The notes beneath the pieces are model-generated. The model worked only from the letters and a program-made list of their open reading frames with translations, was not told where the DNA came from and searched no databases. Shown here piece by piece: positions 27,196-51,963 of a DNA stretch of 64,000 bases (its first letter is position 1; every line of letters begins with the position of its first letter). Where the stretch lies: the IMG/VR virus record IMGVR_UViG_3300029915_000022, one strand, 5' to 3'. The translations under genes and the position numbers were made by a program. The DNA comes from an uncultured virus (IMG/VR IMGVR_UViG_3300029915_000022). Lineage: Duplodnaviria > Heunggongvirae > Uroviricota > Caudoviricetes.

Positions 27196-27270
27196 CCTAC
27201 CGTAACTCGTACCTTATTTTCAACAGGCAAAGTAGATATGGAGTCGTTACAGTACGATCTAAATAACCGG

Positions 27271-27299
27271 TTGCCTTAAAAGGGCCGGTGGGCCATTAT
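27271..27299 (+). promoter_or_regulatory. sigma70-like promoter in a 48-bp GA/TC-free island
   Basis: TTGCCT-17-CATTAT. Confidence 0.55.
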
Positions 27300-27363
27300 T
27301 AGGGCTTGAAAGTTCGTGAAGTCGAAGTCCAAGCTGTTCCACGTTGCAAAGAGGAGGTCTACC

Positions 27364-27708
27364 ATGAAGGAGTTTCTTCCGGTTCTCATTGCCCTGTTCA
27401 TCGGGCTTCTGGGAACCGCGTGTTGCAGAAGTGAACCGGGCAGGGTGACGCTGAGCTGTGTCGCAAGCAAGGAATCTGCTCGCAACGACACTGCAAAGCG
27501 GGTACAGGACACGATCCTGCGCAGCACCAGCACGGAAGATACCCGAACCCCGTTCGCCAATTCGTCCAGCATTCTGCTCGGCGACGTCGGCGACACTCAC
27601 CAGCCCGAGGTCGGCATCGCCGCCGGCTCGAGCAACTACACCGGCCAGGAGTGCGACCAGAATCGGCTTACGTATCCGATTCCTGATCCCTCGTTGACCT
27701 CACTGTAG
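27364..27708 (+). CDS. Putative lipoprotein
   Basis: GAGGAGG RBS; MKEFLPVLIALFIGLLGTAC signal with lipobox-like Cys. Confidence 0.55.
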   Translation: MKEFLPVLIALFIGLLGTACCRSEPGRVTLSCVASKESARNDTAKRVQDTILRSTSTEDTRTPFANSSSILLGDVGDTHQPEVGIAAGSSNYTGQECDQNRLTYPIPDPSLTSL

Positions 27709-27945
27709 CTGGTCTTCGCTTCACGGTCTTTACCGTGTCGTATATGGAGCGCATTGTCGAGGCCAATGGACAGCTCCAACACAACCAGCTGATTGACTAA
27801 GACTGCCGAACAGGCGTCCCGAAAGTCCAGGCAACACCCAGCCTGAATCGGAAACCAAAGATTGGACTGTCGGGAGACGGACCAATCTTTTGTTTTCTTT
27901 AGGATCCAAGAAATTGGTTCTTAAGGAAAGCAATCCAGAAATCCA

Positions 27946-27975
27946 TTGCAGTAGCTAGGCTAGGTCGCCTACAAT
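27946..27975 (+). promoter_or_regulatory. sigma70-like promoter of the recombination/replication operon
   Basis: TTGCAG-18-TACAAT. Confidence 0.65.
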
Positions 27976-27999
27976 TTAAGGCAACCCAGGAGATACGAA

Positions 28000-28428
28000 A
28001 TGCCGGTTACGCCAGCCATCCAGATTCTGATTGATCAGTGGAATGCGAAAGTCAAGGAGATGGCTCCGCTGAAAGCCAAGATCGTGCCACTTGCGGCGGA
28101 GGAACAGGCGTTACGACGTTTAATTGTCCACAGCCTCTGGCCTGCGAACGCCAATGAAGGCACTCGATACGAGGAGCTTGCAACCGGCCAGCGCCTGAAA
28201 GGCAACGTGAAGATCGACCGAAAGGTCGATGAAGCGGCCTACCAGAACAACCATGAGCGTATCTGGAAGGAATTAGGGAATCCGCAAACGTTCTTCAAGA
28301 CGGAGCATTCGCTGGATCTGAAAGCCTACCGCGCGCTCCCTGCGGAGAAGCAGAAGATTCTCCAAGAGATTTTCGTGGAGAAACCAGCATCCCCTGAGTT
28401 GGAGCTTTTGCCCCCTAAAGAGGGGTAA
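28000..28428 (+). CDS. Conserved phage protein (coiled N-terminus) preceding the recombinase
   Basis: AGGAG RBS; EGT...EL..G..LK......RKVDE. Confidence 0.6.
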   Translation: MPVTPAIQILIDQWNAKVKEMAPLKAKIVPLAAEEQALRRLIVHSLWPANANEGTRYEELATGQRLKGNVKIDRKVDEAAYQNNHERIWKELGNPQTFFKTEHSLDLKAYRALPAEKQKILQEIFVEKPASPELELLPPKEG

Positions 28429-28437
28429 GGTCGCGCA

Positions 28438-29139
28438 ATGGCTCCGAACACACCGAACATCATTATCCGGACGACCGACGAGATTACGCAGTCTCGCGGC
28501 GTCAAAGTTCTAGTTCATGCTGGAACTGGAGTCGGGAAAACGCGCATGTGCGCGACCGCACCAGATCCCTTTATCATTTCTGCAGAGCACGGACTTCTCT
28601 CTCTTAAGAAATTTCGAATTCCTGCGACTGAAATTCGGTCGATGGCGGATCTCGGAAATGTCTACCTCTGGTTGATGGAATCTAGCGAATCCCGGTTCAT
28701 CCAAACCGTCTGTATCGATTCTTGGTCCGATATCGCCGAAGTCTTTCTTGAGGAGCTTCGGAAGATCGTAAAGGACCCGAGGCAAGCATACTTCGAAACC
28801 CAACTTCGAATTCTGGAGATGACACGGTACTTCCGGGATATCCCAGACAAGAATGTCTACATCACCGCAAAGTCCGGATATGAGAAGGATGAGCTTTCCG
28901 GTGCGATGAAGTGGGGGCCGATGATGCCAGGAAACAAGCTGGCGCAACTTCTTCCATTCTTGTTCGACGAAGTTTGGGCACTCCGGACTTCCTCTGCAAA
29001 GGATCCGGTTACCGGCATCCCTTACCGATACGTCCAGACGCAAGAGGATCTCCAATACCTTGCAAAGGATCGCAGCGGATCTCTTGCGTTCCAAGAGCCG
29101 GCTGATTTGACTCACCTATTTAACAAGATGCGCGCCTAG
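28438..29139 (+). CDS. AAA_24 / Sak4-like ATPase (recombinase)
   Basis: [32 protein letters not shown]. Confidence 0.85.
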
Positions 29140-29168
29140 CACGCATCGCAACCCGAGGTAGAACTGCA

Positions 29169-29414
29169 ATGGCAACCGGAACGGTGAAGTGGTTCAACGA
29201 TGCGAAGGGCTTTGGTTTCATCACTCCTGACGAGGGCGGAAAGGACGTATTCGTCCACCATACGTCCATCCAGTCGGAGGGATTTCGAAGCCTTGAAGAA
29301 GGCTCGAAGGTCACGTACGAAACCGTGAACGGCGACAAGGGCGTGCAAGCTGCCAACGTCCGGCAGACCTCCAAGGGCAGCTCGGCTCCGAAGTCCAACC
29401 CGAAGAAGAAGTAA
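29169..29414 (+). CDS. cspA: Cold-shock domain protein with basic C-terminal tail
   Basis: [15 protein letters not shown] (RNP1), DVFVH (RNP2). Confidence 0.95.
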
Positions 29415-29438
29415 TTTCCTTCAACCAAGAGAGCGAAC

Positions 29439-30230
29439 ATGAGCAAACTACCTGGAGCATTTGACGCCAGCACCATCAAGCCGGGAGGGATGCTTGATCC
29501 CGTTCCGTCTGGCGTCTACAACGTGAAGATCGTCGAGTCGGAGATGAAGCCGACTTCTGACGCGAAGGGGCAGTATCTCTCCCTCACCCTGGAGATCCTG
29601 GACGGCGAATTCGCGGAGCGAAAGCTCTTTGACAACCTCAACCTTGTCAACGACAACGCGACCGCCGTGCAGATCGCGCAGGGTGCCCTCTCGGCAATCT
29701 GCCACGCCACCGGCGTGATCCGCCTGGACGATTCGGCGGCACTCCACAACATCCCGATGCAGGCCAAGGTCGGCTTGGAGAAGGGGGGCACCGGCAAGGA
29801 CGGAAAGACGTACGAGGACAAGAACAAGATCAAGCGCTACATGCCGATCGAAGGTGGCGCTGGAGCTCCCGCCGCTGGCGGGTTCATTCCGCCGGGTGAG
29901 CAAGTCAAGCCGCCTCCCGCCTCGGCGGCTCCGGCGACGGGTTCTCCGCCGTGGGGAGGAGCAGCCGCTCCCGCTGCCGGTGCATCTACCGGATGGACGC
30001 CGCCCGCTGCAAAGCAGCCCGAGGCTCCCTTTGGCCTGAAGGCTGATGGGTCCTACGAGGGATCTTCCTACCCTCCGGATGCTCACAAGTGGGCCGACGC
30101 AAACGCTTCCAACGAGGAGGCCAAGAAGATCATCGCAAGCCGTCCGAAGAAGCCCGAATCGGCAGCGCCTCCGGCATGGTCGCCTCCCACCTCGGCTCCG
30201 GCTGAGAACAAGCCGCCCTGGGCGAAGTAA
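29439..30230 (+). CDS. Single-stranded DNA-binding protein (DUF669-like)
   Basis: PVPSGVYNVKIVESEMK...LSAICHATG; Pro/Ala tail ending PPWAK. Confidence 0.8.
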   Translation: MSKLPGAFDASTIKPGGMLDPVPSGVYNVKIVESEMKPTSDAKGQYLSLTLEILDGEFAERKLFDNLNLVNDNATAVQIAQGALSAICHATGVIRLDDSAALHNIPMQAKVGLEKGGTGKDGKTYEDKNKIKRYMPIEGGAGAPAAGGFIPPGEQVKPPPASAAPATGSPPWGGAAAPAAGASTGWTPPAAKQPEAPFGLKADGSYEGSSYPPDAHKWADANASNEEAKKIIASRPKKPESAAPPAWSPPTSAPAENKPPWAK

Positions 30231-30239
30231 AGAACTTTT

Positions 30240-30292
30240 GGATTCCTAGGTCTAACTTCCCTCGGGAATCGTTAGGGGCAACCTAGGAATCC
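30240..30292 (+). terminator. Long stem-loop after SSB gene
   Basis: GGATTCCTAGGT...ACCTAGGAATCC followed by TCTTT. Confidence 0.55.
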
Positions 30293-30356
30293 TCTTTCTA
30301 AGAGGCAACGGTACTGGAAGGCGAATCGCTACCGTTGTCTCCTAAAAGGAGATTCA

Positions 30357-30764
30357 ATGCCCGACGATATTGTCGACCGAAAGCCATGCACCGATTGTGG
30401 TCTTACTGGTTCTTTCTCGAAAGAGAAGGTCTGCCCTTCTTGTGGTCAAGCAGGATACTTTTACGGAGTAAACGACAATCCGACGCAGAAGCGAACCGTC
30501 GACACGGCGGCGCTGATCTACAGTGCGGCGATGAAACAGCGTAACATGAGCATTCCGCTTCCGCCGCCCAAAGAAGGTCTCGAGGTTCCCGTCTGGTCTC
30601 TTGTCATGAAGGACATGACTGACCGGGATCAATTTGGCCGGAAGAAGTACGGGCAACCGCTGAAAGCGCACGATGGACGGGATCCATTGACGGATGCTTA
30701 CCAGGAGGCACTGGACCTTGCAGTTTACCTGCGGAAAGCAATTTTTGAGCGGGATGGCAAGTGA
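30357..30764 (+). CDS. Zn-ribbon plus MazG-like helical domain protein
   Basis: CxxC/CxxC; R...G.KKYG..L...DGRD.L.DAYQEALD..VY. Confidence 0.55.
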   Translation: MPDDIVDRKPCTDCGLTGSFSKEKVCPSCGQAGYFYGVNDNPTQKRTVDTAALIYSAAMKQRNMSIPLPPPKEGLEVPVWSLVMKDMTDRDQFGRKKYGQPLKAHDGRDPLTDAYQEALDLAVYLRKAIFERDGK

Positions 30765-31780
30765 GCTTACTTCCGGCCGTTTTTAAGCCGTCGAAAGACC
30801 AGATTATTCCAGCGACCAAAACGCTGGAAGCAATCACCGCTGGCCTTCTGAAGGATGGTGGTAATCTCTACCGAAAGTTTCTTCAGCTCCAACTGCCAAC
30901 TGCGGCGGACGCTTATCGACAGGACGATTCTGTACTCCGTACTCATCTTGGCGCGAGTCAGATCGGTAAAGAGTGCAGTCGAGAACTCTGGTACGGCTTC
31001 CGGTGGGCAGTAGACCCAAAGTCTCGTCGGGAATGGCATGATGGGCCACACCAGGTTCCTATCTGCTTTGCATGTCAGAAACGAGCGGCGGACATGGTCC
31101 GATTGCTCAACCGAGGACATCTCGAAGAGCCAAGGGTCGTGGCCCTTCTTTTGATGATCGGTTGCACGATCTACCAGTTTGACGAAAAGGGGAAGCAGTT
31201 CAAAGTCTCCATTTTCGATGGCCATTTCGGTGGATCCTGCGATGGAGTCCAGGTCGGGATTCCCGATCTTCCGGTCGGGACTCCTTCTCTCGTCGAAATC
31301 AAGACGTCGAACGACAAAAACTTCGATAAGCTTGCAAAAAGCGGTGTCAAAGTTGTCAAACCAGAGCATTTCTACCAGATGCAGACGTACATGGGCGGAC
31401 TTAATCTTACGGTCGCCATCTACATCGCCGTCAATAAGAACGACGACGAAATCTGGGCAGAGCTCGTTTACTTTGATCAGGAAGTGTACGCCGCGATCCA
31501 AGCGAAGGCAAAAACAATCGTCTACTTGAACATGCCTCCTTCCAAGATCAGTAACAATCCATCTTGGCACAAATGCGCATTCTGCGAAGCGAAACACCTT
31601 TGCCACAAGACTCTCGATGCAACGGGCAAGGTTCCTGAGCCGGTTCGTAACTGCAGAACGTGCATCTTTTCCAAGCCGGTTGCGGATTCACTCTGGCTTT
31701 GCGGCCAGACGGACACAACCCTGAACAAAGACCAGCAAATCGCTGGTTGTGGGAAGTACACTCGAATCGGCGGTATGTGA
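30761..31780 (+). CDS. Cas4-like PD-(D/E)XK exonuclease
   Basis: HLGASQIGKEC.R.LWY, GSCDG, EIKT, QMQTYM, CAFC..K.LC. Confidence 0.85.
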   Translation: MSLLPAVFKPSKDQIIPATKTLEAITAGLLKDGGNLYRKFLQLQLPTAADAYRQDDSVLRTHLGASQIGKECSRELWYGFRWAVDPKSRREWHDGPHQVPICFACQKRAADMVRLLNRGHLEEPRVVALLLMIGCTIYQFDEKGKQFKVSIFDGHFGGSCDGVQVGIPDLPVGTPSLVEIKTSNDKNFDKLAKSGVKVVKPEHFYQMQTYMGGLNLTVAIYIAVNKNDDEIWAELVYFDQEVYAAIQAKAKTIVYLNMPPSKISNNPSWHKCAFCEAKHLCHKTLDATGKVPEPVRNCRTCIFSKPVADSLWLCGQTDTTLNKDQQIAGCGKYTRIGGM

Positions 31781-31786
31781 TAGGCC

Positions 31787-33472
31787 ATGCGCTTTGATCA
31801 TCGCGACTACCAAGAAGCTGCTTGGCGCTCCGTAGTTGAGTATTTCCAGGAGGGCAACAGGGGTAACCCTCTCATTGCCCTCCCTACAGGCACGGGAAAG
31901 AGCCCTGTAATCGGCCTGTTAATAAAGTACATGCTGAGCGAGTACCCGCGCACCCGTATCATTGTCGCGACACATACGAAAGAGTTGATTGTCCAGGATC
32001 TAAAAGCGCTCCAACGAGTCTGGCCGAGCGCTCCTGTAGGCGTCTACTCTTCCGGGCTTAAGAAGCACGAAACCTTCTACCCAATCACATTCGCAGGAAT
32101 CGATTCCATAGCCGATCAGGCCCACCTTTTCGGGCATATCGATATCCTCATTGTGGACGAAGCCCACCTAGTTTCGCCTAAAGATGATACGCGCTACCAG
32201 AAGTTCGTTCTAGCTCTTCGAAAGGTTAACCCGTACATCAAGGTAGTTGGTCTAACTGCCACAATCTTCCGGAAGGGGCAGGGTCTTCTCACGGACGATA
32301 ACGGGATCTTTACCGACGTCTGCTTTAACGCGACGACACTAGAATCCTTCAACTGGTTCATAGACGAAGGGTATCTTCTTCCGCTCATCCCACATAAGAC
32401 TGAGCAGGAGTACGACACCTCCGAGATCCAGGTTCTTGGAACTGGCGACTACAACCAGAAGCAGCTCCAAGAAGCGGTCGATAAGCAAGAGCTGACCTAT
32501 AAGGTCTGCGCAGAAACGATCCGGCTTGGGGAGCACCGGAAGCACTGGCTTGTGTTCGCGGCTGGAGTGAATCATACTCTCCATACACGGGATATGTTTG
32601 TGAATCTTGGAGTCAATGCAACGTGCGTTCACTCCAAGATGGGAGACAAAGAGCGTGACGCGAATATTCTTGGATTCCTCAACGGGGAATACCAAGTAAT
32701 GGTCAACAACGGCATTTTGACCACAGGGTTCGATTTCCGGGCGCTGGACCTTATTTCTATGATGCGGTCGACAATGTCGACCTCACTCTGGGTCCAGATG
32801 CTAGGTCGCGGAACAAGGCCGAATTACGCTTCCGGGTTTGATCTAACACAGAAGTGGGCTCGTCTCGCTGCCATCCAAGCGAGCCAGAAGCAGAATTGCC
32901 TCGTTCTCGACTTTGCCGGGAACACTAAGCGACTCGGCCCAATTAACGACCCTGTGATCCCGAAAAAGAAGGGGTCCGGGGGGTCACGTCCAGCTCCGGT
33001 CAGGATCTGCGAAATCTGTATGACGTATAATCATGCAGCAGCTAGATTCTGCATCAATTGCGGGTCTGAGTTTATCCGGCATGTTGCGATCCAGGAGAAG
33101 GCTTCGACGGCTGAGCTTATCCGGAAAACGGAGGATAAGGCTCCTCCGAGGTTTGAAGAGTTCGACGTAAGTAGGATCTCGTACAAGATCCATCAGTCCC
33201 GGAAGGGGACACCGCCGTCGCTAAAGGTGAGTTACTACGCTAGTGTCTATAATACCTTCAACGAATGGCTCTGTTTCGAACACCTTGGATTCGCTTCTGT
33301 AAAGGCTCGAAAAGTCTGGCGTGAACGGACCATGGAACCTGAGAAGCCGGTTCCAGATACGGTGGAAGAGGCGATCGACCGAATTAAAGAGCTGAGAGCC
33401 CCAAAGCGTATCAAAGTCTTTATTCGTCATGGTCCGGGTGAACATTCGGAGGTCGTCGGCTATGAGTATTAA
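31787..33472 (+). CDS. Superfamily 2 DNA helicase (RadD/YejH-like)
   Basis: RDYQ, PTGTGKS, DEAH, TAT, LTTGFD, QMLGRGTR, C-terminal zinc finger. Confidence 0.92.
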   Translation: MRFDHRDYQEAAWRSVVEYFQEGNRGNPLIALPTGTGKSPVIGLLIKYMLSEYPRTRIIVATHTKELIVQDLKALQRVWPSAPVGVYSSGLKKHETFYPITFAGIDSIADQAHLFGHIDILIVDEAHLVSPKDDTRYQKFVLALRKVNPYIKVVGLTATIFRKGQGLLTDDNGIFTDVCFNATTLESFNWFIDEGYLLPLIPHKTEQEYDTSEIQVLGTGDYNQKQLQEAVDKQELTYKVCAETIRLGEHRKHWLVFAAGVNHTLHTRDMFVNLGVNATCVHSKMGDKERDANILGFLNGEYQVMVNNGILTTGFDFRALDLISMMRSTMSTSLWVQMLGRGTRPNYASGFDLTQKWARLAAIQASQKQNCLVLDFAGNTKRLGPINDPVIPKKKGSGGSRPAPVRICEICMTYNHAAARFCINCGSEFIRHVAIQEKASTAELIRKTEDKAPPRFEEFDVSRISYKIHQSRKGTPPSLKVSYYASVYNTFNEWLCFEHLGFASVKARKVWRERTMEPEKPVPDTVEEAIDRIKELRAPKRIKVFIRHGPGEHSEVVGYEY

Positions 33473-33692
33473 CATGTTGCGGTTGCAGGTAAACCTTCAA
33501 GAAGAGGCACTAAAGAGTGCGACATGGCACTCTTGCCTGAACTGTGGCCACTTCGGAGATTCAGACGCCAAGCGTAAGCTGGCCAATCTGGGTCTCTTAG
33601 AAGAACTTCAGTGCATGAAGTACAAGGCGAAGCCTCCTCTGAATGTGATTGTTGTCGGGTGCGAGAGCTGGGAAGACGGAATCCCATTCTGA
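33462..33692 (+). CDS. Small Cys-rich protein
   Basis: SCLNC...C.KY...PP..VIV.GCE.W...IPF. Confidence 0.55.
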   Translation: MSINMLRLQVNLQEEALKSATWHSCLNCGHFGDSDAKRKLANLGLLEELQCMKYKAKPPLNVIVVGCESWEDGIPF

Positions 33693-33729
33693 CGGGATCT
33701 AGATACTTCCAGAAATCTGTTTTGCGTAG

Positions 33730-33758
33730 TTGCACCTTTTAAGGGTTCCCTATAAAGT
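33730..33758 (+). promoter_or_regulatory. Putative sigma70-like promoter
   Basis: TTGCAC-17-TAAAGT. Confidence 0.5.
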
Positions 33759-33816
33759 CCAGCCCGTAGGATCTGCGACATGGGGTCGCAGAAGGATCTA
33801 GGATAGGATCTTCCCA

Positions 33817-34869
33817 ATGCCCGAGAAGAAAGCCGTCAAGAAATCAGCTTCAAAAGGATTCTACGCTCGTGAGCGCGACGCAAAAGCTGCGGCGCTCAAG
33901 AAGTACAAGGAAGGCGAATTCGAGATCGTCTACGGGCCGAAGGGCCATTCGATCCGAGAAGTCAAGCAGTACGTCGCGGTCCCGGATGCGAAGTTGCATG
34001 GGCCGCATGACGAGCCGGAAGAAAAGGAAGAGCAACCGGAGACGGACAAAGCCCCGGAGGAACTTCTACCCGTGGCTTCCATTCCTCCCAAAGAGGAATC
34101 CGACGATATTCGGAGCGATAGTTCTGCCGGAGTACGTGCGCAAGTTGAAGCGCTGAACGAGATCCTGTCCGCCGATCCCGGTACGATGACGGACGAAAAG
34201 GCAGATGCCATCATGAAGGCGCACGCGCCGTCTCATACCGGAACGGTGACAGGAAGGTTGGACTCTTCCCTTCCGCATTACTCCAATATCTCCAAAACCG
34301 ATCCGATCGCAATCGTCTCTGAAAAGGTTGCAATCGAAGCCACCGTGATCGAAGAACACCCTGCGATTCCCCACAGGGTGGAATGCCCGCAGTGCAAGCA
34401 GATGATCGAAACCTTCGGGATCGAAGGTGCTCGCTTCTTTATCGAGCACGAATCCAAGACGGAGGATGGGATCGGCTCCGACTGCGAGCAGTCGGAAGAA
34501 AGCATTCCGCCTGTCAAGCCCATTCCGACCAACGGCTTCAAGCCCCATGAGCTCGCGCAAATCCAGAACGCGGCTGTCGAGAATGGTGCGGAAGCCGCTC
34601 GGGTTGCCGCTTCCAACGAGCGAGGCGAGCAAGTCCGCCCGCTGACCAACCACCTGAAGAAGTCGCTAGTTCCGAGTCCTTCCAAGCTCGTCTGGGAGAT
34701 TGCAGATCAGCTGAAGATTTCCAATCCGACTTGGCAGCGCAAGGACATCATCAAGCACCTTGAATCCAAAGGGATCGCGCATTTCACCGCTCGTACCCAA
34801 TACCAGCAGTGGCTGAAGGCAAATCGGGAATCCACCGCGAACGCAGCGCTGGCGAATGCCAAGAAATAA
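33817..34869 (+). CDS. TQY-x-x-W family protein, paralog 3 (long acidic N-terminus)
   Basis: PSKLVWEIAD...RKDIIKHLESKGIAHFTARTQYQQW. Confidence 0.75.
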   Translation: MPEKKAVKKSASKGFYARERDAKAAALKKYKEGEFEIVYGPKGHSIREVKQYVAVPDAKLHGPHDEPEEKEEQPETDKAPEELLPVASIPPKEESDDIRSDSSAGVRAQVEALNEILSADPGTMTDEKADAIMKAHAPSHTGTVTGRLDSSLPHYSNISKTDPIAIVSEKVAIEATVIEEHPAIPHRVECPQCKQMIETFGIEGARFFIEHESKTEDGIGSDCEQSEESIPPVKPIPTNGFKPHELAQIQNAAVENGAEAARVAASNERGEQVRPLTNHLKKSLVPSPSKLVWEIADQLKISNPTWQRKDIIKHLESKGIAHFTARTQYQQWLKANRESTANAALANAKK

Positions 34870-35053: not shown

Positions 35054-35057
35054 CCAT

Positions 35058-35087
35058 TTTACGGCTTGGCCCGGTTGGGCTTATAAT
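35058..35087 (+). promoter_or_regulatory. sigma70-like promoter in a 48-bp GA/TC-free island
   Basis: TTTACG-18-TATAAT. Confidence 0.65.
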
Positions 35088-43623: not shown

Positions 43624-43624
43624 G

Positions 43625-45670
43625 GTGCGCTCCGATTCGATTGGGATGTTCTGGACCGACGTTCAGCGCAAAAAGGGCGTGCTGAATCGCCTGCGACCTC
43701 TTGCACCTATTCCGGACACTGGCTGGACCCCTCCCAGATCCTTCCCTAATCTTAGGTCTGCAAAGATCCTAGGTATCGACATTGAATCATACGATCCCGA
43801 AATTGAGGATCGTGGACCAGGATGGGGTCGTGGTAGGCCAGACAAGTTCCATATGTCCGGGATGTCCATTTCTACCCAAGACGGATACAAGTGGTATTTC
43901 CCGATTCGACATACAGTCGAGAAGGAGTATAACCTCAATCCAGAGCAGGTCATCGCTTGGGCAAAGGACACCCTCCGCCACGACGACCAGACAAAAGTCG
44001 GCGCGAACCTTATCTATGATATCGGTGGTCTTCGGGAAGAAGGGATCCATGTCCGTGGTCGACTTCTCGACGTCCAAATGGCAGAAGCTCTTCTCGACGA
44101 GCGGTCGCTCGTCCGTCTCGATAAGCTTGGCGAGAAGTACCTTGGAAGGGGGAAGCTTCAAACTACGCTTTTCAGATGGTCGTCTGACTCCTACGGTGGT
44201 GCACCGACTCACGAGAAGCAGGCCGAAAACATCTGGAGGAGCCCTCCTCGACTAGTCGGCCCGTACGCAGAAGAAGATGCACTCATGCCTTTCGAGCTTC
44301 TTCCAATCATGTGGGAGAAGCTGGCATCCGAAGGTCTCACTGACCTATTTCTAATGGAGTGCGATCTAATTCGGCTTGTTGTGGACATGCGCTTTAAGGG
44401 CGTGGCAGTTGACGTAGAACATGCGGTCCGGCTAAGGGATTCGCTTACGCAGCGAATTACAGAGAACCAGTTAAAGCTCAATGAGCTTGCCGGGTTCAAA
44501 GTTAACGTCAACGCTTCTGATTCTATCGCGAAGCTTTTCGACAAGTTTAATCTAAAGTATCCGCGGACAGAACCAACTAAGAATAAGCCAACCGGAAATC
44601 CCAGCTTCCGAAAAGAGTGGCTCAAGAGTCATCCGCACCCGATGGCTCAAATGGTCATGGGGGTACGGAGACTTTCCAAACTCCGAGGGACCTTCGTTGA
44701 AGGGTATATCATTAACGGGAATACGAATGGGATCCTTCACGGATCCTTTCACCCTCTTCGGACAGACCGGAATGGTACAATCATTGGCCGGTTTTCGAGC
44801 TCGCATCCAAATCTACAGAATCTTCCTATCCGGGATAAAGAGATCCTTCCGGACGGGTCTGTCGAGAAGCTCGGTAAAGAAATCCGATCAATCTTTAAGC
44901 CGCACGATGGCCACAAGGAATGGGTCAAGTTCGACCTTTCCCAGATCCAATATCGCGGAATGGTTCATTGCGCGACTGGACCGGGTGCAGAAGCCGCTCG
45001 CAACCGGTATCGCAACGATCCTCTGACCGACTTCCATAAGTGGGCCGTTGAAGTCGTGCAGGCTGTCTTCGCGAAGAAGGTTGAGCGCGACGCCGTTAAA
45101 GAGCTGAATTTCGGAACGCTCTTTGGGATGGGCAAAGCAAAGTTACTCGCGCGTCTCGGTGGAGCACTCAAAGAAGCTAAAGCATTCATGGAGGCGTACC
45201 ATGCCGGAGTCCCCTTTGTTAAACCGACTATCAAAGAGATTTCGGCTTATGCCGAACAAAACGGGTTCATCGTTAGTCCTCTTGGTCGCCGTGCTCGTTT
45301 TGATCTGTGGGAGCCTAATCGCAAACGGGGTGAGGACGATGGGGAAGAAACTCCTGCTCTTCCGCTAGACCTTGCACTCCGTAAGTACACCGACATCCGT
45401 AGAGCGTATCTTCATAAGGCACTAAATCGGTATCTCCAGATGCTCGAAGCCGATTGCATGAAGAAAGCCATGTGGCAGCTCTACACCGGCGGAGTATGGG
45501 ATCAACTCGGCGTCCCAGTTCTACAGGTTCACGATGAACTCGACTTCTCCCATGCTGGCGGATTTGAACGCGAACTTGAGGAGACTAAACGCGCCATGGA
45601 GACCGCGGTTAAACTCACCGTCCCAATCCTTTGCGAAAAGAAAATTGCGGCCCATTGGGGCGCGTGCTAA
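43625..45670 (+). CDS. polA: Family A DNA polymerase with 3'-5' exonuclease domain
   Basis: DIES, N..YD, YAEED exonuclease motifs; GRFSSSHPNLQN; DLSQIQYR (motif A), K.LNFG..FG (motif B), VHDE (motif C). Confidence 0.95.
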   Translation: MRSDSIGMFWTDVQRKKGVLNRLRPLAPIPDTGWTPPRSFPNLRSAKILGIDIESYDPEIEDRGPGWGRGRPDKFHMSGMSISTQDGYKWYFPIRHTVEKEYNLNPEQVIAWAKDTLRHDDQTKVGANLIYDIGGLREEGIHVRGRLLDVQMAEALLDERSLVRLDKLGEKYLGRGKLQTTLFRWSSDSYGGAPTHEKQAENIWRSPPRLVGPYAEEDALMPFELLPIMWEKLASEGLTDLFLMECDLIRLVVDMRFKGVAVDVEHAVRLRDSLTQRITENQLKLNELAGFKVNVNASDSIAKLFDKFNLKYPRTEPTKNKPTGNPSFRKEWLKSHPHPMAQMVMGVRRLSKLRGTFVEGYIINGNTNGILHGSFHPLRTDRNGTIIGRFSSSHPNLQNLPIRDKEILPDGSVEKLGKEIRSIFKPHDGHKEWVKFDLSQIQYRGMVHCATGPGAEAARNRYRNDPLTDFHKWAVEVVQAVFAKKVERDAVKELNFGTLFGMGKAKLLARLGGALKEAKAFMEAYHAGVPFVKPTIKEISAYAEQNGFIVSPLGRRARFDLWEPNRKRGEDDGEETPALPLDLALRKYTDIRRAYLHKALNRYLQMLEADCMKKAMWQLYTGGVWDQLGVPVLQVHDELDFSHAGGFERELEETKRAMETAVKLTVPILCEKKIAAHWGAC

Positions 45671-45764
45671 TCGCTGGTTATAGGGCGGCGCATGGCCCTA
45701 GCCAATTAAACAACCATGTAACCGTACCCCTGCAACTATACTACCTTGTTACCAAGGAGAACCA

Positions 45765-46025
45765 ATGGAAGATTCAAAGACGCCAGAAGTAAACTTCAAG
45801 ACCACTACGGACCTCGTTGCTTACTTCGAGGCGGATTCCTGCATGAAGCACTGTATCGCTTCTGCCCAACACATGGGATCTATTGGTCAGGAGCAGATCC
45901 AAGCGTTCTTTATCGTTCAGGCAACCGGGTTCCAAAAGTTCATCCAGGAGCTCATTCGCAGGAACTCTTCTGGAATCCAGGTTGTCGGAGCGATTCCAAA
46001 TGGCGTCAAGCCTCCTGGAGCGTAG
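45765..46025 (+). CDS. Hypothetical protein
   Basis: AAGGAG RBS; preceded by a GA/TC-free island containing TATACT. Confidence 0.55.
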   Translation: MEDSKTPEVNFKTTTDLVAYFEADSCMKHCIASAQHMGSIGQEQIQAFFIVQATGFQKFIQELIRRNSSGIQVVGAIPNGVKPPGA

Positions 46026-46087: not shown

Positions 46088-46669
46088 CTAACAGTGCGGC
46101 GTCAGGGTGAACGGCCCGGAGGTCGGGTAATCCGGAGATGCGCCGGATGTAAAGATCACCTTGATACTGTAGTAGTACCGTCCAGGCACAGTTGAAGCGG
46201 TGTCGCTTTCGTTCATAGCAATCTGAGCTTCCCCGAGCGTGGCCGAAATGATACTAATATCGCCATTCAGTAAACTCTTCTGGAAAATCAGAATGCTGGA
46301 TGGGAGCGGTCCCATTCGAACCGTCAAGATAATGTCTTCGACATTATCTAGATTGATTGGCGTGGTGCGATCTGCCGAATCAAGGTACGTCCAGCCGATC
46401 GGCATCCCAGAACCGCACGGTCTTACAATCGGCGTTGCGGCTTGTCCAGGCATCCGGTAGACTCCATAGATCATCGCGATATCTCGTAGACCGAGAATCT
46501 CGTAGTGGGGAAGAAAGGACTCAACCGATACGATATCTTGTAGACCAAGAATATCGTTGAGCGGCTCCTGGAACGGCGGGAGCGTTGTGGTTACAGGAGG
46601 CTCTTCCTCCCTTAAAAGAAGAAGCAGGAAGAGATCGTCTTCGTCCTGCTTATTCCAAAGGAAGTTCAT
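46088..46669 (-). CDS. BppU N-terminal-like beta-sandwich protein
   Basis: PINL...G.I.I.SATLGEAQI.....DT....G.YYY. Confidence 0.55.
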   Translation of the reverse strand: MNFLWNKQDEDDLFLLLLLREEEPPVTTTLPPFQEPLNDILGLQDIVSVESFLPHYEILGLRDIAMIYGVYRMPGQAATPIVRPCGSGMPIGWTYLDSADRTTPINLDNVEDIILTVRMGPLPSSILIFQKSLLNGDISIISATLGEAQIAMNESDTASTVPGRYYYSIKVIFTSGASPDYPTSGPFTLTPHC

Positions 46670-46677
46670 CCTTTACC

Positions 46678-47178
46678 TCAGTTGGACTGGTAGAGCCGAA
46701 GGCAATAGTCGAAGAGCTCTCCGGGTTCCGTGAGCTCAGGCGAAAGCGTGTAGACTTCCGGGTAGGTCGGCTCAAGGCGAAGAGTCCGAACCACCAGGGC
46801 AGAGCACATAGATGCGTGAGCACCTGAGAATGCGGTCCGCCACTTCAGGCCAGCCTTTTTCGCGAGGTCGTTGAGCCCTGCGCAGATGTCTGCTTCCCAA
46901 TCGTACGAGTATCCGGTGTATCGCTTGATCGATTCTTTCAGTGCGGCGGTAAGATCCACTTTGGGATCAAAGGTCGCCACTACCTTTCGATTCTCAAGTG
47001 CAAGGCCGAACTCGGCGAGCTCCAGAACCGGACCTCGGCTATCAGCTTGGTAGACGAGCTGCCCCCATTCTGATTCGATCAGAAAGAACGCGTGGGAAAC
47101 CTTCGCGCTCGTAATCTTTTCGATTACCTGGGAGTCGAGATCCGAACTTGTTGAAAACCCGATAAGGATCTTACTCAT
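46678..47178 (-). CDS. Permuted papain-like (NlpC/P60, YiiX-like) enzyme
   Basis: SHA...Y.G.SYDW...CSALV; His precedes Cys. Confidence 0.7.
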   Translation of the reverse strand: MSKILIGFSTSSDLDSQVIEKITSAKVSHAFFLIESEWGQLVYQADSRGPVLELAEFGLALENRKVVATFDPKVDLTAALKESIKRYTGYSYDWEADICAGLNDLAKKAGLKWRTAFSGAHASMCSALVVRTLRLEPTYPEVYTLSPELTEPGELFDYCLRLYQSN

Positions 47179-47402
47179 TGGCCAGTGCCTCCACCAATGC
47201 CATCCGACGCATGAGTGAAGTACGCCGCGATGTCCGTATCGGCTTGCGCAAGGGTGGTTCTGGCAAGGGTAAAGGTTCTCGTCACAGGGTTCCCGTTATC
47301 GTCAAGCCACGACAAGGTGAGAGTATTCATCCCGGGTCGAGGGTCGACAGTGAACGTAGCTCCTGACTTATCGTCGATTGCTTGCTGAGGAAGAATGGGC
47401 AT
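47175..47402 (-). CDS. Hypothetical protein
   Basis: AGGAG RBS, ATGA coupling. Confidence 0.5.
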   Translation of the reverse strand: MPILPQQAIDDKSGATFTVDPRPGMNTLTLSWLDDNGNPVTRTFTLARTTLAQADTDIAAYFTHASDGIGGGTGQ

Positions 47403-47412
47403 TGGAGTCTCC

Positions 47413-49002
47413 TTATCTAGAAAGGAAGGTTAAGGGTTCACGGAAATGAACTAGATCGATTGGAGGCGAGGCGTCGCACCCGACCCCCATCAGGGACATT
47501 GTGCATGTGGAGCTTGGGCTGGTCAGCAAGATCTCCGCGAATCCGACAGTCCAACTCGTTGGAGTGGCTGTGTTCGACGCGCCGATCGTCACGGCAGATG
47601 TCCCCGTGCTCCACGCGTTCTCATTCCATAGGATACCAGTTGCCCCGGATGTATTGTTATTTGCAATGGTTGCTTGCGGTGTCGTGGTTGGAGTGCGGCT
47701 AGTTTGATTCGCGCTATCTACGCCCCCACCTAAGAGCAGACTTCCCTTTGCCGCCGGAGTGATCGTAATCGCCGCCGGACCCGAGCTGGTGGCCCCACAC
47801 TGGAAATTCGCAGGCAACGTTTTTTCTGAATAAAGAGGTGCAACTACGAATATTGTACTTGAGATCAGCGAGGTCGCAGTGAATGTGGCAGTGACCGTCT
47901 TGCTTGAAGCCTGACTCGTTGTTACTGCGCACCACTCGTCTACCAATGCAGTCGTTCCATTCATGCATGGGGCGCCGAAAACATGCTGCCAACCCGCACT
48001 CGTTTTGGAGATTCCGCTATCGGAAATGGCGACGCTAGAGCTGGTAAGTCCGACGCCTTGAACTTCCACCATTGCGCATAGAAGTTCAGACGGTGCCGAC
48101 GTTGATCGGCTGGGGGAAGTCGTATTGGTGGTTGCTGTCGTAGTGCTGTGGCCCGGACAACTCGGAATAATGCCCGAGCTATTATTAGTTGCAGTTGGGC
48201 ACCAGACGGGATCTACACCCACGTTTACAGACGCGTCGAAGATCTCTACGGGATAACCGGACCAAGTTTGGGTTACGACGGCAGGACTAGCAGAGGCAAC
48301 CAGGCTGCCTCCGGTGCCAAGAGGCGAAGTCATTAGCCACAGCGCATGAGAATTTGCGGCATCGAGCACCTGATAAGTCACGGTCCCGCTAATTGCCGTT
48401 CGTGACGTTGCGCTATGCGAGTCGGCGAACCCAGCAAATGAATAATTATTTGCAGTCGTGAGTCCGCTAGGGTTCGCCGTCGCTGTAGTTCCCGTGTCGG
48501 TTCCGCCCTGCGCTTTCCCGATTGTCGCGGGAGATCCAAATACCAGCGGGACGCCAACTATATCTTGCACCACTCCGCTAGTAGTGGTGGCCGAGAAGTT
48601 ACAAGTGACTCCCGTTAGCGCAGACGACGTATAGGCGAAGAACGAAGCAGAGCACGTTGGTGTAGTGGTTGAACACTCAGTTCCTACGTTGCTAACCGAG
48701 ACGAGGAAAGTTCCTGAGCCTCCCGTGAAGGTTGGCGTTGCGAACGAGATTGTTCCAGCCGTCGCAATAGCCATCACGTGGATCTCAATCAACTCAATCC
48801 CGTTCATCGCGGCGGGTGGCGCGGTCGAAAATGAAGACGTGGAAGCGGTGGTGGTGGTGCCCGATCCGAGGATATTGCTGGCCACAGGACACGATCCCGC
48901 CCCGGTTGGGCAAGCTGACGTGTCGAACGTGAGAGCTGCGCGCGCGGAGCCGGAGCACAGGAGCAGTGCCAGGAGGATCTTAACGGCACGCATACATTCC
49001 AC
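47413..49002 (-). CDS. Thr/Ser/Gly/Cys-rich beta protein with N-terminal signal peptide
   Basis: MRAVKILLALLLCSGSARA; two similar beta domains. Confidence 0.6.
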   Translation of the reverse strand: MECMRAVKILLALLLCSGSARAALTFDTSACPTGAGSCPVASNILGSGTTTTASTSSFSTAPPAAMNGIELIEIHVMAIATAGTISFATPTFTGGSGTFLVSVSNVGTECSTTTPTCSASFFAYTSSALTGVTCNFSATTTSGVVQDIVGVPLVFGSPATIGKAQGGTDTGTTATANPSGLTTANNYSFAGFADSHSATSRTAISGTVTYQVLDAANSHALWLMTSPLGTGGSLVASASPAVVTQTWSGYPVEIFDASVNVGVDPVWCPTATNNSSGIIPSCPGHSTTTATTNTTSPSRSTSAPSELLCAMVEVQGVGLTSSSVAISDSGISKTSAGWQHVFGAPCMNGTTALVDEWCAVTTSQASSKTVTATFTATSLISSTIFVVAPLYSEKTLPANFQCGATSSGPAAITITPAAKGSLLLGGGVDSANQTSRTPTTTPQATIANNNTSGATGILWNENAWSTGTSAVTIGASNTATPTSWTVGFAEILLTSPSSTCTMSLMGVGCDASPPIDLVHFREPLTFLSR

Positions 49003-50335
49003 CTCCGCTCACGTTCGTAGATCCTCCGACGGCTACACAGACATTCTGCGAAACGGTCGCTGTCGCGTTAATCGGGTGGCCAGCAGAAGGGGCCATACCA
49101 CCTCCAGCCGCGAAACCCATCGAAGCCGTCGTATTTCCCCACATGCCGCGAGGTGTTCCGCCAGCGCAGGAGGATCCTGTACCCTCGATAATCGATACGA
49201 GCTGAGCAGATCCCGACGAAGAATTGACAAGCGTTAAAGAGCAGATATAGATCTGTTTCCCTGAGCAAAGCGGAATGATGATTGCGGTGCTCGCCGTTGA
49301 GAAGGAAAATGGAGTATCACAGACGATCGCCGTCGAGGTTCCGTCAGACAACTTGAAGGATCCAATTAGGGCAGACCCCGCAACCAGCCCGATCGTCCCA
49401 CCAGTCGCCTGCATAACCGCTGAGCCAAGAGAAGCCAGAATCGCCGCGAGAGTCGTCTGCGACGCAGCCCCCGTAGGCAACGGCTGTGCAGCTCCGTTTG
49501 GTGACAAAGAAACTGTAGTCGCCTTGTCCCCGGCTACAGGAGTGGTCGAGCCGGGCTGAACTTTCGCCGTGTTCGTACCGTCACTGGTCCCAACCCACGG
49601 AGTCGCGTTCGCAGATCCTTGATTCGCGTTTATCGTCGTCGGCGGCGTGAGGGCCGCGAGCTGGAGCGCCGTGAGAACAACAGGCCACGACCCCGCAGCT
49701 AGGGCTTGTCCCTGAGCTGGGATCTTGTCCGTGTCCGTCTTGATCGCGGCGAGGTTGCCTCCGGACTCGAGAGCGAGCAAAGAAGTATTGAGATTCGTGC
49801 CCGCGTTGGCGGTGAACGCAGTGTTGCTGATCGAGCCGATTGCAGACGCTCCTCCGCCAAGGATCACGGTCGGGTTGACCGCGAACGCAGGCAACGTTCC
49901 CGAGATACCAAAGCTCGTGTTGCTGATGCTGCCTCCAGCGATATTGAAGGAAGGCGTCGATGCGAACGGTGGCAGTGTGCCGCTGATCCCAAAGGCGGTG
50001 TTCCCGATATTTCCTCCGCCGAGATTGAACGTAGGTGTAAAAGCGAATGCGGGGAGTGACCCGGTGAGCGATACAGATCCCGACACAGGTTGCGGAGTAG
50101 TCCCTGTTGGGTCGATACGAACCGGATTCGTCAAAGATCCCAGCGTATTCGATCCATCGTAGAGTTGAACCTTCGCCGACCCGTTGGTAAGAGTGGTGTC
50201 CGTTGTAGCCACCGGAGTACCGCCCAAGAATCCCTGAATCTGCTGAATACCTGGAGCGTTGGTTGCAACTGCGACTCCTGTGGCCACAAGGAGTGCGCCA
50301 ACAACTCCGGCCAAAACGGCTTTTCCATTCGTCAT
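48980..50335 (-). CDS. Fibre-like protein with signal peptide and ~26-aa repeats
   Basis: MTNGKAVLAGVVGALLVATGVAVA; three copies of G.LP.FA..P.F...GG.I.NT.F. Confidence 0.6.
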   Translation of the reverse strand: MTNGKAVLAGVVGALLVATGVAVATNAPGIQQIQGFLGGTPVATTDTTLTNGSAKVQLYDGSNTLGSLTNPVRIDPTGTTPQPVSGSVSLTGSLPAFAFTPTFNLGGGNIGNTAFGISGTLPPFASTPSFNIAGGSISNTSFGISGTLPAFAVNPTVILGGGASAIGSISNTAFTANAGTNLNTSLLALESGGNLAAIKTDTDKIPAQGQALAAGSWPVVLTALQLAALTPPTTINANQGSANATPWVGTSDGTNTAKVQPGSTTPVAGDKATTVSLSPNGAAQPLPTGAASQTTLAAILASLGSAVMQATGGTIGLVAGSALIGSFKLSDGTSTAIVCDTPFSFSTASTAIIIPLCSGKQIYICSLTLVNSSSGSAQLVSIIEGTGSSCAGGTPRGMWGNTTASMGFAAGGGMAPSAGHPINATATVSQNVCVAVGGSTNVSGGGMYACR

Positions 50336-50629
50336 TTAGAATTCCTCGACAAAGCCGGTTTGACCACCGTCAGCAGAAAAGATCCAGATATCTTGGGAAG
50401 TCGGGAGGATCCGGGATTCTTCCCCAGATGCGATAACTTTCCCGGTCGACGCATTTACGCCGTTGTCGTATCCGTAGTAGATGGGAGATCCGGGGCCAGA
50501 TCCAATGTCGACGCTTATCCGGGCAATTAACCGTCCGGACAACCCAATCGCTGGGACCTTAACCGGCGTGTTCGCGGTTAAAGGACCCCAAGCCGTTAGT
50601 TTCGCAGCGGTTGAGAATGGTGTCGACAT
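50336..50629 (-). CDS. Hypothetical beta-sandwich protein
   Basis: Operonic ORF, GAGG RBS. Confidence 0.5.
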   Translation of the reverse strand: MSTPFSTAAKLTAWGPLTANTPVKVPAIGLSGRLIARISVDIGSGPGSPIYYGYDNGVNASTGKVIASGEESRILPTSQDIWIFSADGGQTGFVEEF

Positions 50630-50639
50630 TTGGCCTCAG

Positions 50640-51377
50640 TTAGAAGCTAAGCGACGGGCCGAAAACGAGACGAGCTGCAACGTCCCCGATAAAGCCCTTC
50701 CACCACCCGAAAGACGCATAGCCATTCAGGACGCTTGCGACAACCCCGATGGATACCTGTTGCGCGACGAAGTCCACCCTTCCGCACGCGTTCAAACCAA
50801 CCGAGTACCACTGGCCCTTCCACGCAGTCGCATTGTAGCAGAGCCCCGGTTGGAAGGCTCCTTCAACCTTCTTTGTATGAAGATTGATCGACGTAACAAT
50901 GACCACCGCGGCTGGTTGGAAACTGAAGACGCCGACGGTCCCGCCGAACGAAGTCGTCGTCACCGGTGGAGTATCGGACGATGCGACCTTGGGCAGAACC
51001 GGTTCAACCTTGACAGGATCCGCATGAGTCGAAAACGATAGAAGTAGTGTGGCAAGGAAGATCCCAACCAGAACTGGGATCAAGGCGAATCCATTTGGAG
51101 GAGTCAATGTAGTCCTTCCGGACCCAAGTTCGATAGCCATCGGGTGGCCACTCGGAACGGCGGCAAGTAAGGGGAACTTCAGTGGATTCTCGGATTGGGT
51201 GTCGTAGTGCTCAGCAATAGAGAACCTCGCGCACACCAACTTCAGCAAGGCAAGGATCGCCGGAGTGAAGGTCGTGGGGTGCTCAGTCACCATCGTGAAG
51301 ATGGTCGGCGCGAAGGCAGACGCGATCAAAATCAGCATCGTCTGATGAGCAACCAAGAATGCGAGAAAGCCGGACAT
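50640..51377 (-). CDS. Membrane protein next to endolysin (possible lysis component)
   Basis: Three hydrophobic segments and a beta-rich C-terminus ending in Phe. Confidence 0.5.
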   Translation of the reverse strand: MSGFLAFLVAHQTMLILIASAFAPTIFTMVTEHPTTFTPAILALLKLVCARFSIAEHYDTQSENPLKFPLLAAVPSGHPMAIELGSGRTTLTPPNGFALIPVLVGIFLATLLLSFSTHADPVKVEPVLPKVASSDTPPVTTTSFGGTVGVFSFQPAAVVIVTSINLHTKKVEGAFQPGLCYNATAWKGQWYSVGLNACGRVDFVAQQVSIGVVASVLNGYASFGWWKGFIGDVAARLVFGPSLSF

Positions 51378-51431
51378 AGAATCTCCTTTGAAGGTAAGTG
51401 ATCGTCTACTACTTTGGGAAGATTTGCAATC

Positions 51432-51905
51432 CTATTCTGGATCCTGAACAGGAGTTGACCACAACGCGCATTCGGCTTCCCGGCGGTTGATCAAACCTTG
51501 GCTGACCTTAAGCTCGTGAGGCGGCGCGGGATCCGTCTCTTTGTTCCAGAGACGAATGTGGTCCGGGACTTCCGAAAGACTCCCGGCAAGGGCGAGAGCT
51601 CGCGCGGAGCTCGTCGCGAACCTGCGAAGTCCAATGTTGTACGCCAGGATCACAAGAGCGCTGTACTGGTTGTCATTCAGTATCGCGCCGCGCATAAGCG
51701 AATTGATCCCGATGCAGAAAATCTGAACGTCTCGGTCGTACGCACGGTCTGCTTGATCCTGGGTCCAAACAAGCCCCATAACAACGTCGGGTCCAGTGTG
51801 CCCGTACCCGATTGTCCAGACGAGTTTCTCGTCTTCATAAGCCTTGAACTTGCAGTCTTCCAGGCGCTTCAAAAGATTCTTTGCACGGTCTGTGAACGTA
51901 TTCAC
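51432..51905 (-). CDS. Endolysin, phage lysozyme (GH24)
   Basis: E-x8-D-x5-T (EDCKFKAYEDEKLVWTIGYGHT), AYNIG, GLINRREAE. Confidence 0.93.
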   Translation of the reverse strand: MNTFTDRAKNLLKRLEDCKFKAYEDEKLVWTIGYGHTGPDVVMGLVWTQDQADRAYDRDVQIFCIGINSLMRGAILNDNQYSALVILAYNIGLRRFATSSARALALAGSLSEVPDHIRLWNKETDPAPPHELKVSQGLINRREAECALWSTPVQDPE

Positions 51906-51916
51906 GATTCACCAGG

Positions 51917-51945
51917 TTGCAAACGGGTTAGCCCTTGGTTATACT
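51917..51945 (+). promoter_or_regulatory. sigma70-like promoter in a 43-bp GA/TC-free island
   Basis: TTGCAA-17-TATACT. Confidence 0.8.
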
Positions 51946-51963
51946 TTTACCAAGAGGTGACAC

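Follow-up and report, generated by a model that had tools for sequence, protein, structure and literature searches.

GA-free islands in an uncultured peat phage with a DpdA module: patches probably spared from the phage's own presumed DNA modification, some with promoter-like motifs

The sequence-specific modification of phage DNA with 7-deazaguanines is known to protect it from restriction and Cas9, and it raises the question of how such phages keep their own DNA readable. For the two closest described systems, it is reported that the DpdA system of phage Iggy modifies 97% of the GA sites and only GA, that this mark depends on the dPreQ0 system (PMC10484667), and that phage CAjan carries preQ0 at GA and GGC (PMC7544227). 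Here we analyse 64,000 nucleotides of an uncultured virus of the Caudoviricetes (IMG/VR record IMGVR_UViG_3300029915_000022), which we call the window at its full length and in which we found patches without GA on either strand (GA/TC-free islands). This is an uncultured peat phage that combines predicted contractile-tail genes with an Iggy- and CAjan-like replication module. The gene order of this module resembles that of Iggy (helicase, Cas4-type exonuclease, Sak4, ligase; QueE, QueC, QueD, FolE, DpdA, clamp, polymerase), except that the ligase gene is placed otherwise and that the window has a ThyX gene; apart from the same two points it is also syntenic with the replication and modification module of CAjan, whose DpdA likewise targets GA. 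Iggy differs in being a siphovirus of 60.6 kb with a low GA/TC frequency (0.097 per position), whereas the window encodes sheath and baseplate proteins and has a frequency of 0.154.

Of all dinucleotide classes, GA/TC is the most frequent one in the window, with observed/expected ratios of 1.22/1.26, and the longest runs free of any class are nevertheless those free of GA/TC, with lengths of 741, 266, 133, 98, 86, 68, 54, 50, 50, 45 and 44 bp. They are located as follows (ORF, open reading frame; spacer lengths in bp between the two hexamers).

14451 to 14518, plus strand: island of 68 bp at the left edge of the large block, with TTGCAA (14470)-19-TATATT (14495-14500).
14530 to 15548, no strand: large block of 1.1 kb, consisting of the runs of 741 and 266 bp, which are split by two GA at 15270-15283.
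19593 to 19646, plus strand: island of 54 bp in a 263-bp gap after the ORF 19026-19451, with a weak TTTATA-17-CATACT.
26044 to 26141, minus strand: island of 98 bp within the primase gene (residues 278-310), with TTGCAAAG on the gene strand.
27259 to 27308, plus strand: island of 50 bp in the divergent gap between 27015-27230 (minus) and the start of the replication block at 27316 (plus), with TTGCCT (27271)-17-CATTAT (27294-27299).
35047 to 35096, plus strand: island of 50 bp with TTTACG (35058)-18-TATAAT (35082-35087), followed by the Shine-Dalgarno sequence AAGGA and an ATG at 35118.
36185 to 36317, no strand: island of 133 bp in the middle of a 518-bp gap (36015-36532) upstream of the ligase gene (36533), with TTGCAAAG at 36215.
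42552 to 42595, plus strand: run of 44 bp at the dpdA 3' end; the clamp gene (42664) follows 69 bp downstream.
45672 to 45757, plus strand: island of 86 bp between the stop of the DNA polymerase gene (45670) and the ORF 45765-46025, with TATACT at 45737-45742 and no good -35 element; its right end lies within the Shine-Dalgarno sequence AAGGAG.
51910 to 51954, plus strand: island of 45 bp in the gap separating the endolysin gene (51432-51905, minus) from a divergent ORF of 86 amino acids (51964-52224, plus), with TTGCAA (51917)-17-TATACT (51940-51945); its right end lies at the Shine-Dalgarno sequence AGAGGTG.

Four of these islands (27259-27308, 35047-35096, 45672-45757 and 51910-51954) had been named in an initial annotation of the same sequence, and we found them within one base of the positions given there and with the motifs claimed (TTGCCT-17-CATTAT, TTTACG-18-TATAAT, TATACT at 45737 and TTGCAA-17-TATACT). 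All 11 runs of at least 44 bp lie in the early and replication part or in a divergent gap and none lies within the structural-gene blocks, which make up about half of the window; all three divergent intergenic gaps contain an island. In four islands, the GA-free run stops exactly where a Shine-Dalgarno sequence supplies its first GA, which is as compatible with the footprint of a promoter as with the removal of GA from the entire region preceding the ribosome-binding site. The run at 42552-42595 is the weakest of the set and may have arisen by chance.

The excess of GA/TC-free runs over chance was determined after taking out the region of the large block (14163-15554), which leaves 8 runs of at least 44 bp, 6 of at least 50 bp and 3 of at least 60 bp. 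Markov models of order 1, 3 and 5 predict 1.1-1.3, 0.3-0.4 and 0.03-0.04 such runs, respectively, and a null in which codons were shuffled and intergenic DNA was drawn from a Markov model, predicts 3.3, 1.1 and 0.17. Under the latter, the probability of 8 or more runs of at least 44 bp is 0.032 and that of 3 or more runs of at least 60 bp is 0.002. The expectation raised by the initial annotation that the island lengths exceed chance is thus borne out for the set as a whole, but a lone run of 45-50 bp is not significant by its length. Position is the stronger signal: six of the eight islands are noncoding compared to 0.34 expected, and in 500 simulations the number never exceeded three. Of the 11 longest runs free of GA/TC, nine are noncoding, compared to one or two of the 11 longest for each of five control dinucleotide classes, which corresponds roughly to the noncoding share of the window (10%). 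Within the short islands (560 bp) there are no GA/TC steps at all where 68.9 are expected, and the region 14420-15548 has 6 instead of 160. The restriction is specific for this word, since GGC/GCC is twofold enriched in the islands and CA steps are not avoided (ratios of 0.86-0.99). Runs of 30-39 bp occur at chance (17 compared to about 23 expected). Most intergenic gaps are not GA-poor, so that the absence of GA characterizes individual patches rather than the noncoding DNA as a whole.

The genes of the presumed writer of the avoided mark lie in the same replication block.

38186 to 42663, plus strand: predicted 7-deazaguanine module, with QueE (38186-38914), QueC (38914-39696), QueD (39603-40151), FolE (40144-40731), ThyX (40735-41712) and DpdA (41746-42663).

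The preQ0 pathway is complete according to PHROG matches (FolE 1.2e-77, QueD 1.3e-43, QueE 3.3e-49, QueC 1.5e-60), and Pfam supports QueC (4.7e-53) and ThyX (a Thy1 match). The DpdA gene product matches phrog_887 (3.3e-71) and no Pfam family at E <= 0.01; it is 45% identical to the DpdA of Iggy and 46% to that of CAjan over about 295-299 residues, whereas these two enzymes share 72% with each other. That GA is the target of this DpdA we infer from the avoidance of GA only, together with the targets reported for Iggy and CAjan (PMC10484667, PMC7544227). GGC, the second motif of CAjan, is not avoided in the window or in its islands, in agreement with the GA-only motif of Iggy.

To assess the promoter content, we scored eight islands with a simple sigma70 position weight matrix, the frequencies of which were set by hand, against random GA-free sequences with the islands' own dinucleotide composition. 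Four of the eight islands harbor a sigma70-like -35/-10 pair on the strand of the downstream gene with p <= 0.035, namely 35047 (plus-strand score 11.4, p 0.005; 10 of 12 consensus positions in a separate consensus scan), 51910 (11.2, p 0.005), 14451 (8.7, p 0.035, with a spacer of 19 bp compared to the 16-18 bp of sigma70-type promoters) and 27259 (7.6, p 0.035, compared to -4.1 for the best site on the minus strand). Among them are the three islands for which the initial annotation had given both hexamers. The scores of 19593 (6.7, p 0.12) and 42552 (4.2, p 0.16) are marginal, and 45672 (4.9, p 0.44) and 36185 (p 0.85) contain no convincing pair. The plus strand scored higher than the minus strand in six of the eight islands, and combining the eight islands with Fisher's method gives about 2e-4 (calculated by hand). 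The promoter-like sites at 27271, 35058, 51917 and 14470 all face the next ORF on the plus strand, and three of them lie in or at divergent gaps. The islands 27259, 35047 and 51910 start 7-12 nt before the -35 element and end 9 nt past the -10 element, i.e. approximately at the expected start site.

The noncoding promoter-like hits (matrix score of at least 8.5, n = 11, without the large block) have 4.2 GA/TC per 48 bp, compared to 6.6 in random noncoding windows (standard deviation 2.4) and 7.0 in 43 coding hits of equal score, and when ORFs are masked automatically, no class other than GA/TC (z = -2.8) is depleted around them. The initial annotation had further described nearly free runs at the promoter-like sites 27946, 33730, 37537 and 38150; these sites are indeed poor in GA/TC from -45 to +3 (3, 2, 1 and 3 steps, a range of up to 3 being found in 10.7% of random noncoding windows), but the lengths of the runs themselves (31 bp at 33717, 33 bp at 37543 and 27 bp at 38156) are at chance. 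TTGCAA, a GA-free palindromic variant of the -35 element, occurs 28 times in the window compared to 14.4 expected, a number reached in none of 100 shuffles, and five of nine TTGCAAAS sites lie inside islands. The depletion of TTGACA (20 compared to 26.6 expected in the window) is not significant. The islands 14451-14518 and 51910-51954 have TTGCAAACGGGT in common, which occurs exactly twice in the window (14470 and 51917), as had been pointed out; with one mismatch allowed, 6 of 100 shuffles contain it at least twice as well. Structured RNA as the cause of the islands was considered and rejected, as none of five folded islands differed from shuffles (z from -0.97 to +1.38; 45672: -0.91; 36185: +1.38) and Rfam recognized only a transfer-messenger RNA (tmRNA) elsewhere in the window.

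From these results we slightly favor the reading that the modification motif of the phage itself is kept out of these patches, and that the short patches are promoters of the host type. DpdA would replace the G of 5'-GA-3' on either strand, as in Iggy, which would concern about 28% of all G in the window, and the product would be a 7-substituted 7-deazaguanine with its substituent projecting into the major groove. Cis-acting segments that are purged of GA on both strands would then consist of chemically ordinary DNA, regardless of the modification state of the remaining genome. The short islands (45-68 bp) would mostly represent host sigma70-type promoters of early and replication genes and of one isolated small gene, in which the GA-free -35 variants TTGCAA, TTGCCT and TTTACG stand in for TTGACA. 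Host RNA polymerase could in this way start on fully modified incoming DNA, and elongation through the modified genes would need no protection. The mechanism assumed here, namely that bulky 7-substituents all but abolish sigma-dependent transcription, has an in vitro counterpart in Raindlova et al. 2016: transcription by the RNA polymerases of E. coli and B. subtilis was nearly abolished on templates with 7-vinyl-, 7-ethynyl- or 7-phenyl-7-deazaguanine, and there were no shorter transcripts and no sign of an elongation block (PMC4838386). By our own comparison, the ethynyl group is similar in size to the cyano group of preQ0.

Several observations weigh against this reading. Four elements, namely 36185-36317, 45672-45757, 26044-26141 and the 1.1-kb block, greatly exceed the size of a promoter, and the first two lack a convincing hexamer pair. 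The top sigma70-like site of the window is not GA-free.

23720 to 23748, plus strand: TTGACG-17-TACAAT, intergenic, with GGAG and an ATG at 23797 downstream.

This site, which the initial annotation had already singled out as an exception on account of its TTGACG, contains two GA, one in the -35 element and one in the spacer. In the consensus scan, which flags 35058, 51917 and 38150, the number of promoter-like sites is at chance (12 compared to 11.1 and 10 compared to 10.3), and the island scores depend on matrix frequencies that were set by hand. Most intergenic gaps, many of which should hold promoters, are not GA-poor. The best promoter-like sites of Iggy adjoin its islands and carry GA/TC (TTGACG-17-TACTAT at 60028 and TTGTAA-18-TATAAT at 3128), and in six other DpdA phages the predicted noncoding promoters show no more than a weak depletion of GA (z from +0.3 to -2.4; CAjan with z = -0.4 is not GA-poor). 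Four other DpdA phages show no excess of long runs in the cross-genome comparison given below. The DpdA of the window is only 45-46% identical to the characterised enzymes, so that its GA specificity is deduced from the genome pattern itself. As to the chemistry, the in vitro study reports that plain 7-deazaguanine and its 7-methyl derivative are tolerated by the E. coli polymerase, and the templates carried synthetic substituents at every G and thus neither preQ0 nor a GA-restricted pattern (PMC4838386). Finally, the 24 sequencing runs that contain window sequence are all peat metagenomes, and none of them is listed as an RNA run. Accordingly, of the interpretation given initially, in which promoters are kept free of modified G, a part is supported, namely by the preQ0 pathway with DpdA, by the GA-only purge and by the four promoter-like islands of eight, whereas 36185 and 45672 without a pair and 23720 with its GA do not conform to it; the observation of the islands as such is confirmed. 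The suggested use of GA avoidance as a promoter finder did not hold, since it is neither sensitive nor specific.

For the long islands (86-741 bp), a function as promoters is not a sufficient explanation, and they call for a further or a different role, for example as an origin, as a terminal or first-entering region, or as regulator sites. A serious alternative, although in our judgement one with limited probability, is that the islands are modification-free cis elements of such other kinds, with leaders as a further candidate, and that the promoter-like hexamers are incidental or secondary. The five longest runs (741, 266, 133, 98 and 86 bp) exceed the footprint of a promoter, the pair is missing at 36185 and 45672, and the four islands that reach a Shine-Dalgarno sequence look as if everything upstream had been purged. 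The 98-bp island in the primase gene encodes a linker between domains (residues 278-310) that is rich in Pro, Ala and Thr and hypervariable in length and sequence among eight relatives, and the 518-bp gap around the 36185 island contains no clear ORF; the origin could lie in this linker or in the gap 36015-36532. Also in Iggy, the islands flank the best promoter-like sites instead of covering them, and one island has a terminator-like hairpin inside. On the other hand, the short islands fit the footprint of a promoter closely, four of the eight scored islands have significant, correctly oriented -35/-10 pairs, and the large block contains no iterons or strong repeats, only short and weak repeat families.

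This block, the candidate for a terminal or first-entering region, sits between two divergent gene arms, as the leftward genes end at 14162 and the first rightward early gene starts with an ATG at 15601. It has no Rfam match, and an ORF within it (15171-15470) was regarded as doubtful, as it has no Pfam or PHROG match (the PHROG scan covered the overlapping ORF 15208-15516). Compared to the GA-poor right end of Iggy, the block shows two collinear matches, 19 of 20 positions at 14600-14619 (Iggy 60044-60063) and 14 of 14 at 15535-15548 (Iggy 60546-60559); other nucleotide similarity to Iggy is confined to the helicase and the que/dpdA genes. For Iggy, a direct terminal repeat of 1091 bp is reported (PMC10484667). 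In four of four peat runs, Logan contigs at 14.1-18.9 kb have about 1.5-2 times the depth of those further right, the depth being an average per contig; the left ends of these contigs lie at 14142, 14364 and 14418 and their right ends at 18708, 18866 and 18905. As a weak indication, this step may reflect a direct terminal repeat with the same starting point as the GA-free block. The stretch 14160-14420, immediately left of the block, is AT-rich and GA-dense, with two direct copies of TTGGATTCGTTC at a distance of 129 bp and two of a 34-nt unit at a distance of 39 bp, and may represent an operator or an origin-like element.

A more far-reaching proposal, which we consider unlikely, is that the presence or absence of the modification motif acts as a cis-regulatory code or epigenetic timer and that the 1.1-kb block marks the terminal DNA that enters first. 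GA-free promoters would then be readable on the fully modified incoming genome, and GA-bearing ones, such as 23720 or TTGACG-17-TACTAT of Iggy, would be silenced or altered and fire only on fresh, unmodified DNA, or the reverse.

It is rather improbable that the islands of 44-54 bp have arisen by chance in noncoding DNA and that only the long ones are real. The codon-shuffle null indeed allows for several of them (3.3 of at least 44 bp and 1.1 of at least 50 bp), runs of 30-39 bp are at chance, relatives with a lower GA frequency have runs of 50-60 bp without any excess, and the double occurrence of TTGCAAACGGGT reaches only p of about 0.06. However, there are five noncoding short runs where 0.34 noncoding runs of at least 44 bp are expected in all, the control dinucleotide classes are not concentrated in noncoding DNA, and three of the short islands coincide with the best correctly oriented promoter-like motifs of the noncoding DNA.

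Another potential agent of GA avoidance is encoded outside the module.

10059 to 10700, minus strand: Mom-family protein (PF25680, 36.7 bits compared to a cut-off of 27.1; phrog_1384, 7e-11).

The Mom protein of phage Mu acts on an A preceded by G or C. That GA is avoided for a reason other than DpdA, be it a Mom that modifies the A of GA or a nuclease or host defence that reads GA-containing sites, is nevertheless very improbable, because Iggy and PBPA162 have islands without a Mom homologue (best tblastn E of 1.3), because a Mu-like (C/G)A target would predict the avoidance of CA as well, which is not seen, and because the GA mark of Iggy depends on the dPreQ0 system (PMC10484667). A homologue of Mom was likewise not found by tblastn in CAjan, 9g, VPv64, BcepGomr or the Stenotrophomonas phage, which leaves DpdA as the shared candidate writer. 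Independently of the islands, the Mom-family protein suggests a second, adenine-directed DNA modification in this phage.

The remaining gene content fits a tailed phage with contractile-tail structural genes, as obtained from PHROG and Pfam scans of the window. On the minus strand, 1-8146 and 46088-64000 encode head, packaging and tail proteins (terminase, portal, protease, major head protein, sheath and baseplate wedge), and small genes of unknown function occupy the plus strand from 15601 to 24695.

24697 to 26973, minus strand: primase (PHROG/Pfam).
27316 to 46025, plus strand: replication block with Sak4, an SSB-like protein, Cas4-type exonuclease, helicase, ligase, the que genes, ThyX, DpdA, clamp and DNA polymerase.
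8530 to 8859, minus strand: full-length tmRNA gene, flanked by the terminase-side genes and the small-gene block (Rfam RF00023, E = 1e-30, 83 bits compared to a gathering score of 47).
29169 to 29414, plus strand: cold-shock-domain protein (PF00313, 1e-29).

The ORF of 86 amino acids downstream of the 51910 island (51964-52224, plus) starts with MRFLVLVTLVSC, a sequence resembling a lipobox-containing lipoprotein signal; the ORF stands alone on its strand between lysis and tail genes, in the manner of a moron, with its own promoter-like island (51917). Contigs of other organisms in the peat runs pile up to very high depth on the 5' part of the cold-shock gene and at about 21100-21300 (region 20671-21337). 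As to variation of the phage itself, four peat runs compared to 14001-34000 show almost no differences, and none at 14001-16671 among the contigs listed. A megablast of the window against phages gave no match. A search of viral contigs with the primase returned one identical locus and 15 at 55-64% identity, and a search of metagenome contigs with the helicase one identical locus, on a contig of 65,243 bp, and 18 at 37-51%. With the first early gene (ATG at 15601) as query no relatives were found, and the nearest of the records compared (G001, 74% complete) does not include the region 14100-15700.

For a comparison across DpdA phages, we counted the GA/TC-free runs that reach at least the 95th percentile of the maximum in Markov-3 simulations of the respective genome. 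The window has 6 such runs, Iggy 5 and BcepGomr 1, and CAjan, 9g, the Variovorax phage VPv64 and the Stenotrophomonas phage have none, the test having little power for 50-bp islands at a lower GA frequency. In CAjan, the longest run is 81 bp compared to a simulated 95th percentile of 87-90 bp. Likewise, none of 21 distant metagenome and viral loci of at least 10 kb had two or more runs over the threshold, in a test that is blind to 50-bp islands at lower GA frequency. In nine primase relatives, the primase gene is directly followed by GA-free runs of 38-59 bp, which were not counted, as their AT-richness can explain them. Words other than GA are missing from long runs in some of these sequences: three primase relatives (L006, L008 and L011) have one CA/TG-free run of 113-114 bp each, the next longest being 43-56 bp, so that another word may be purged there; in Iggy, a gene annotated as 'putative transcriptional activator' contains AC/GT-free runs of 115 and 99 bp (at 38544-38757); and one further locus (L028) has three AC/GT-free runs over the threshold.

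Iggy resembles the window in its excess of GA/TC-free runs (60074-60225, 60363-60457, 3179-3286, 39300-39456 and 27694-27854), which are longer (95-171 bp) and in several cases lie in annotated coding sequences. In the 12 longest runs of Iggy, the relative PBPA162 has 22 substitutions and no new GA/TC, where 7.1 would be expected from random substitution, and Pa-X has 38 substitutions and 4 new GA/TC compared to 12.1 expected; as the runs were chosen in Iggy, the test is biased against such an outcome. From this we conclude that the GA-freeness of the islands appears to be maintained by selection in Iggy, for which GA-specific dPreQ0 has been demonstrated by experiment. Iggy is culturable, and its islands of the same kind are not mentioned in the Iggy paper, in the main text of which the words 'promoter', 'intergenic', 'depleted' and 'transcription' are absent (PMC10484667). 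The main text of the CAjan paper likewise lacks 'promoter', 'intergenic' and 'transcription' (PMC7544227), and full-text searches of the literature gave no report of promoter regions that lack a modification motif. Should the islands be real in the sense proposed here, the target motif of a DpdA could be read from sequence alone, candidate early promoters, origins and termini could be flagged in uncultured phages, and the chemistry of a phage's own DNA would be seen to shape its regulatory sequence.

The conflict between modification and transcription has been noted before. Hutinet et al. 2019 considered that 7-deazaguanines might block sigma and transcription factors and set this aside with the argument that the housekeeping sigma factor reads AT-rich sequence, and motif-free promoter regions are not described there (PMC6884629). 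A more familiar pattern is the avoidance of restriction sites or methylation motifs in phages, where selection removes a short recognition word from the whole genome and the word is the target of a host enzyme. The window differs in that the avoided word is presumably the target of the phage's own modification, is over-represented in the genome as a whole (1.22-1.26) and is purged only in small patches. The modification system is a known one, and it is its presumed imprint on regulatory DNA that, to our knowledge, has not been described before.

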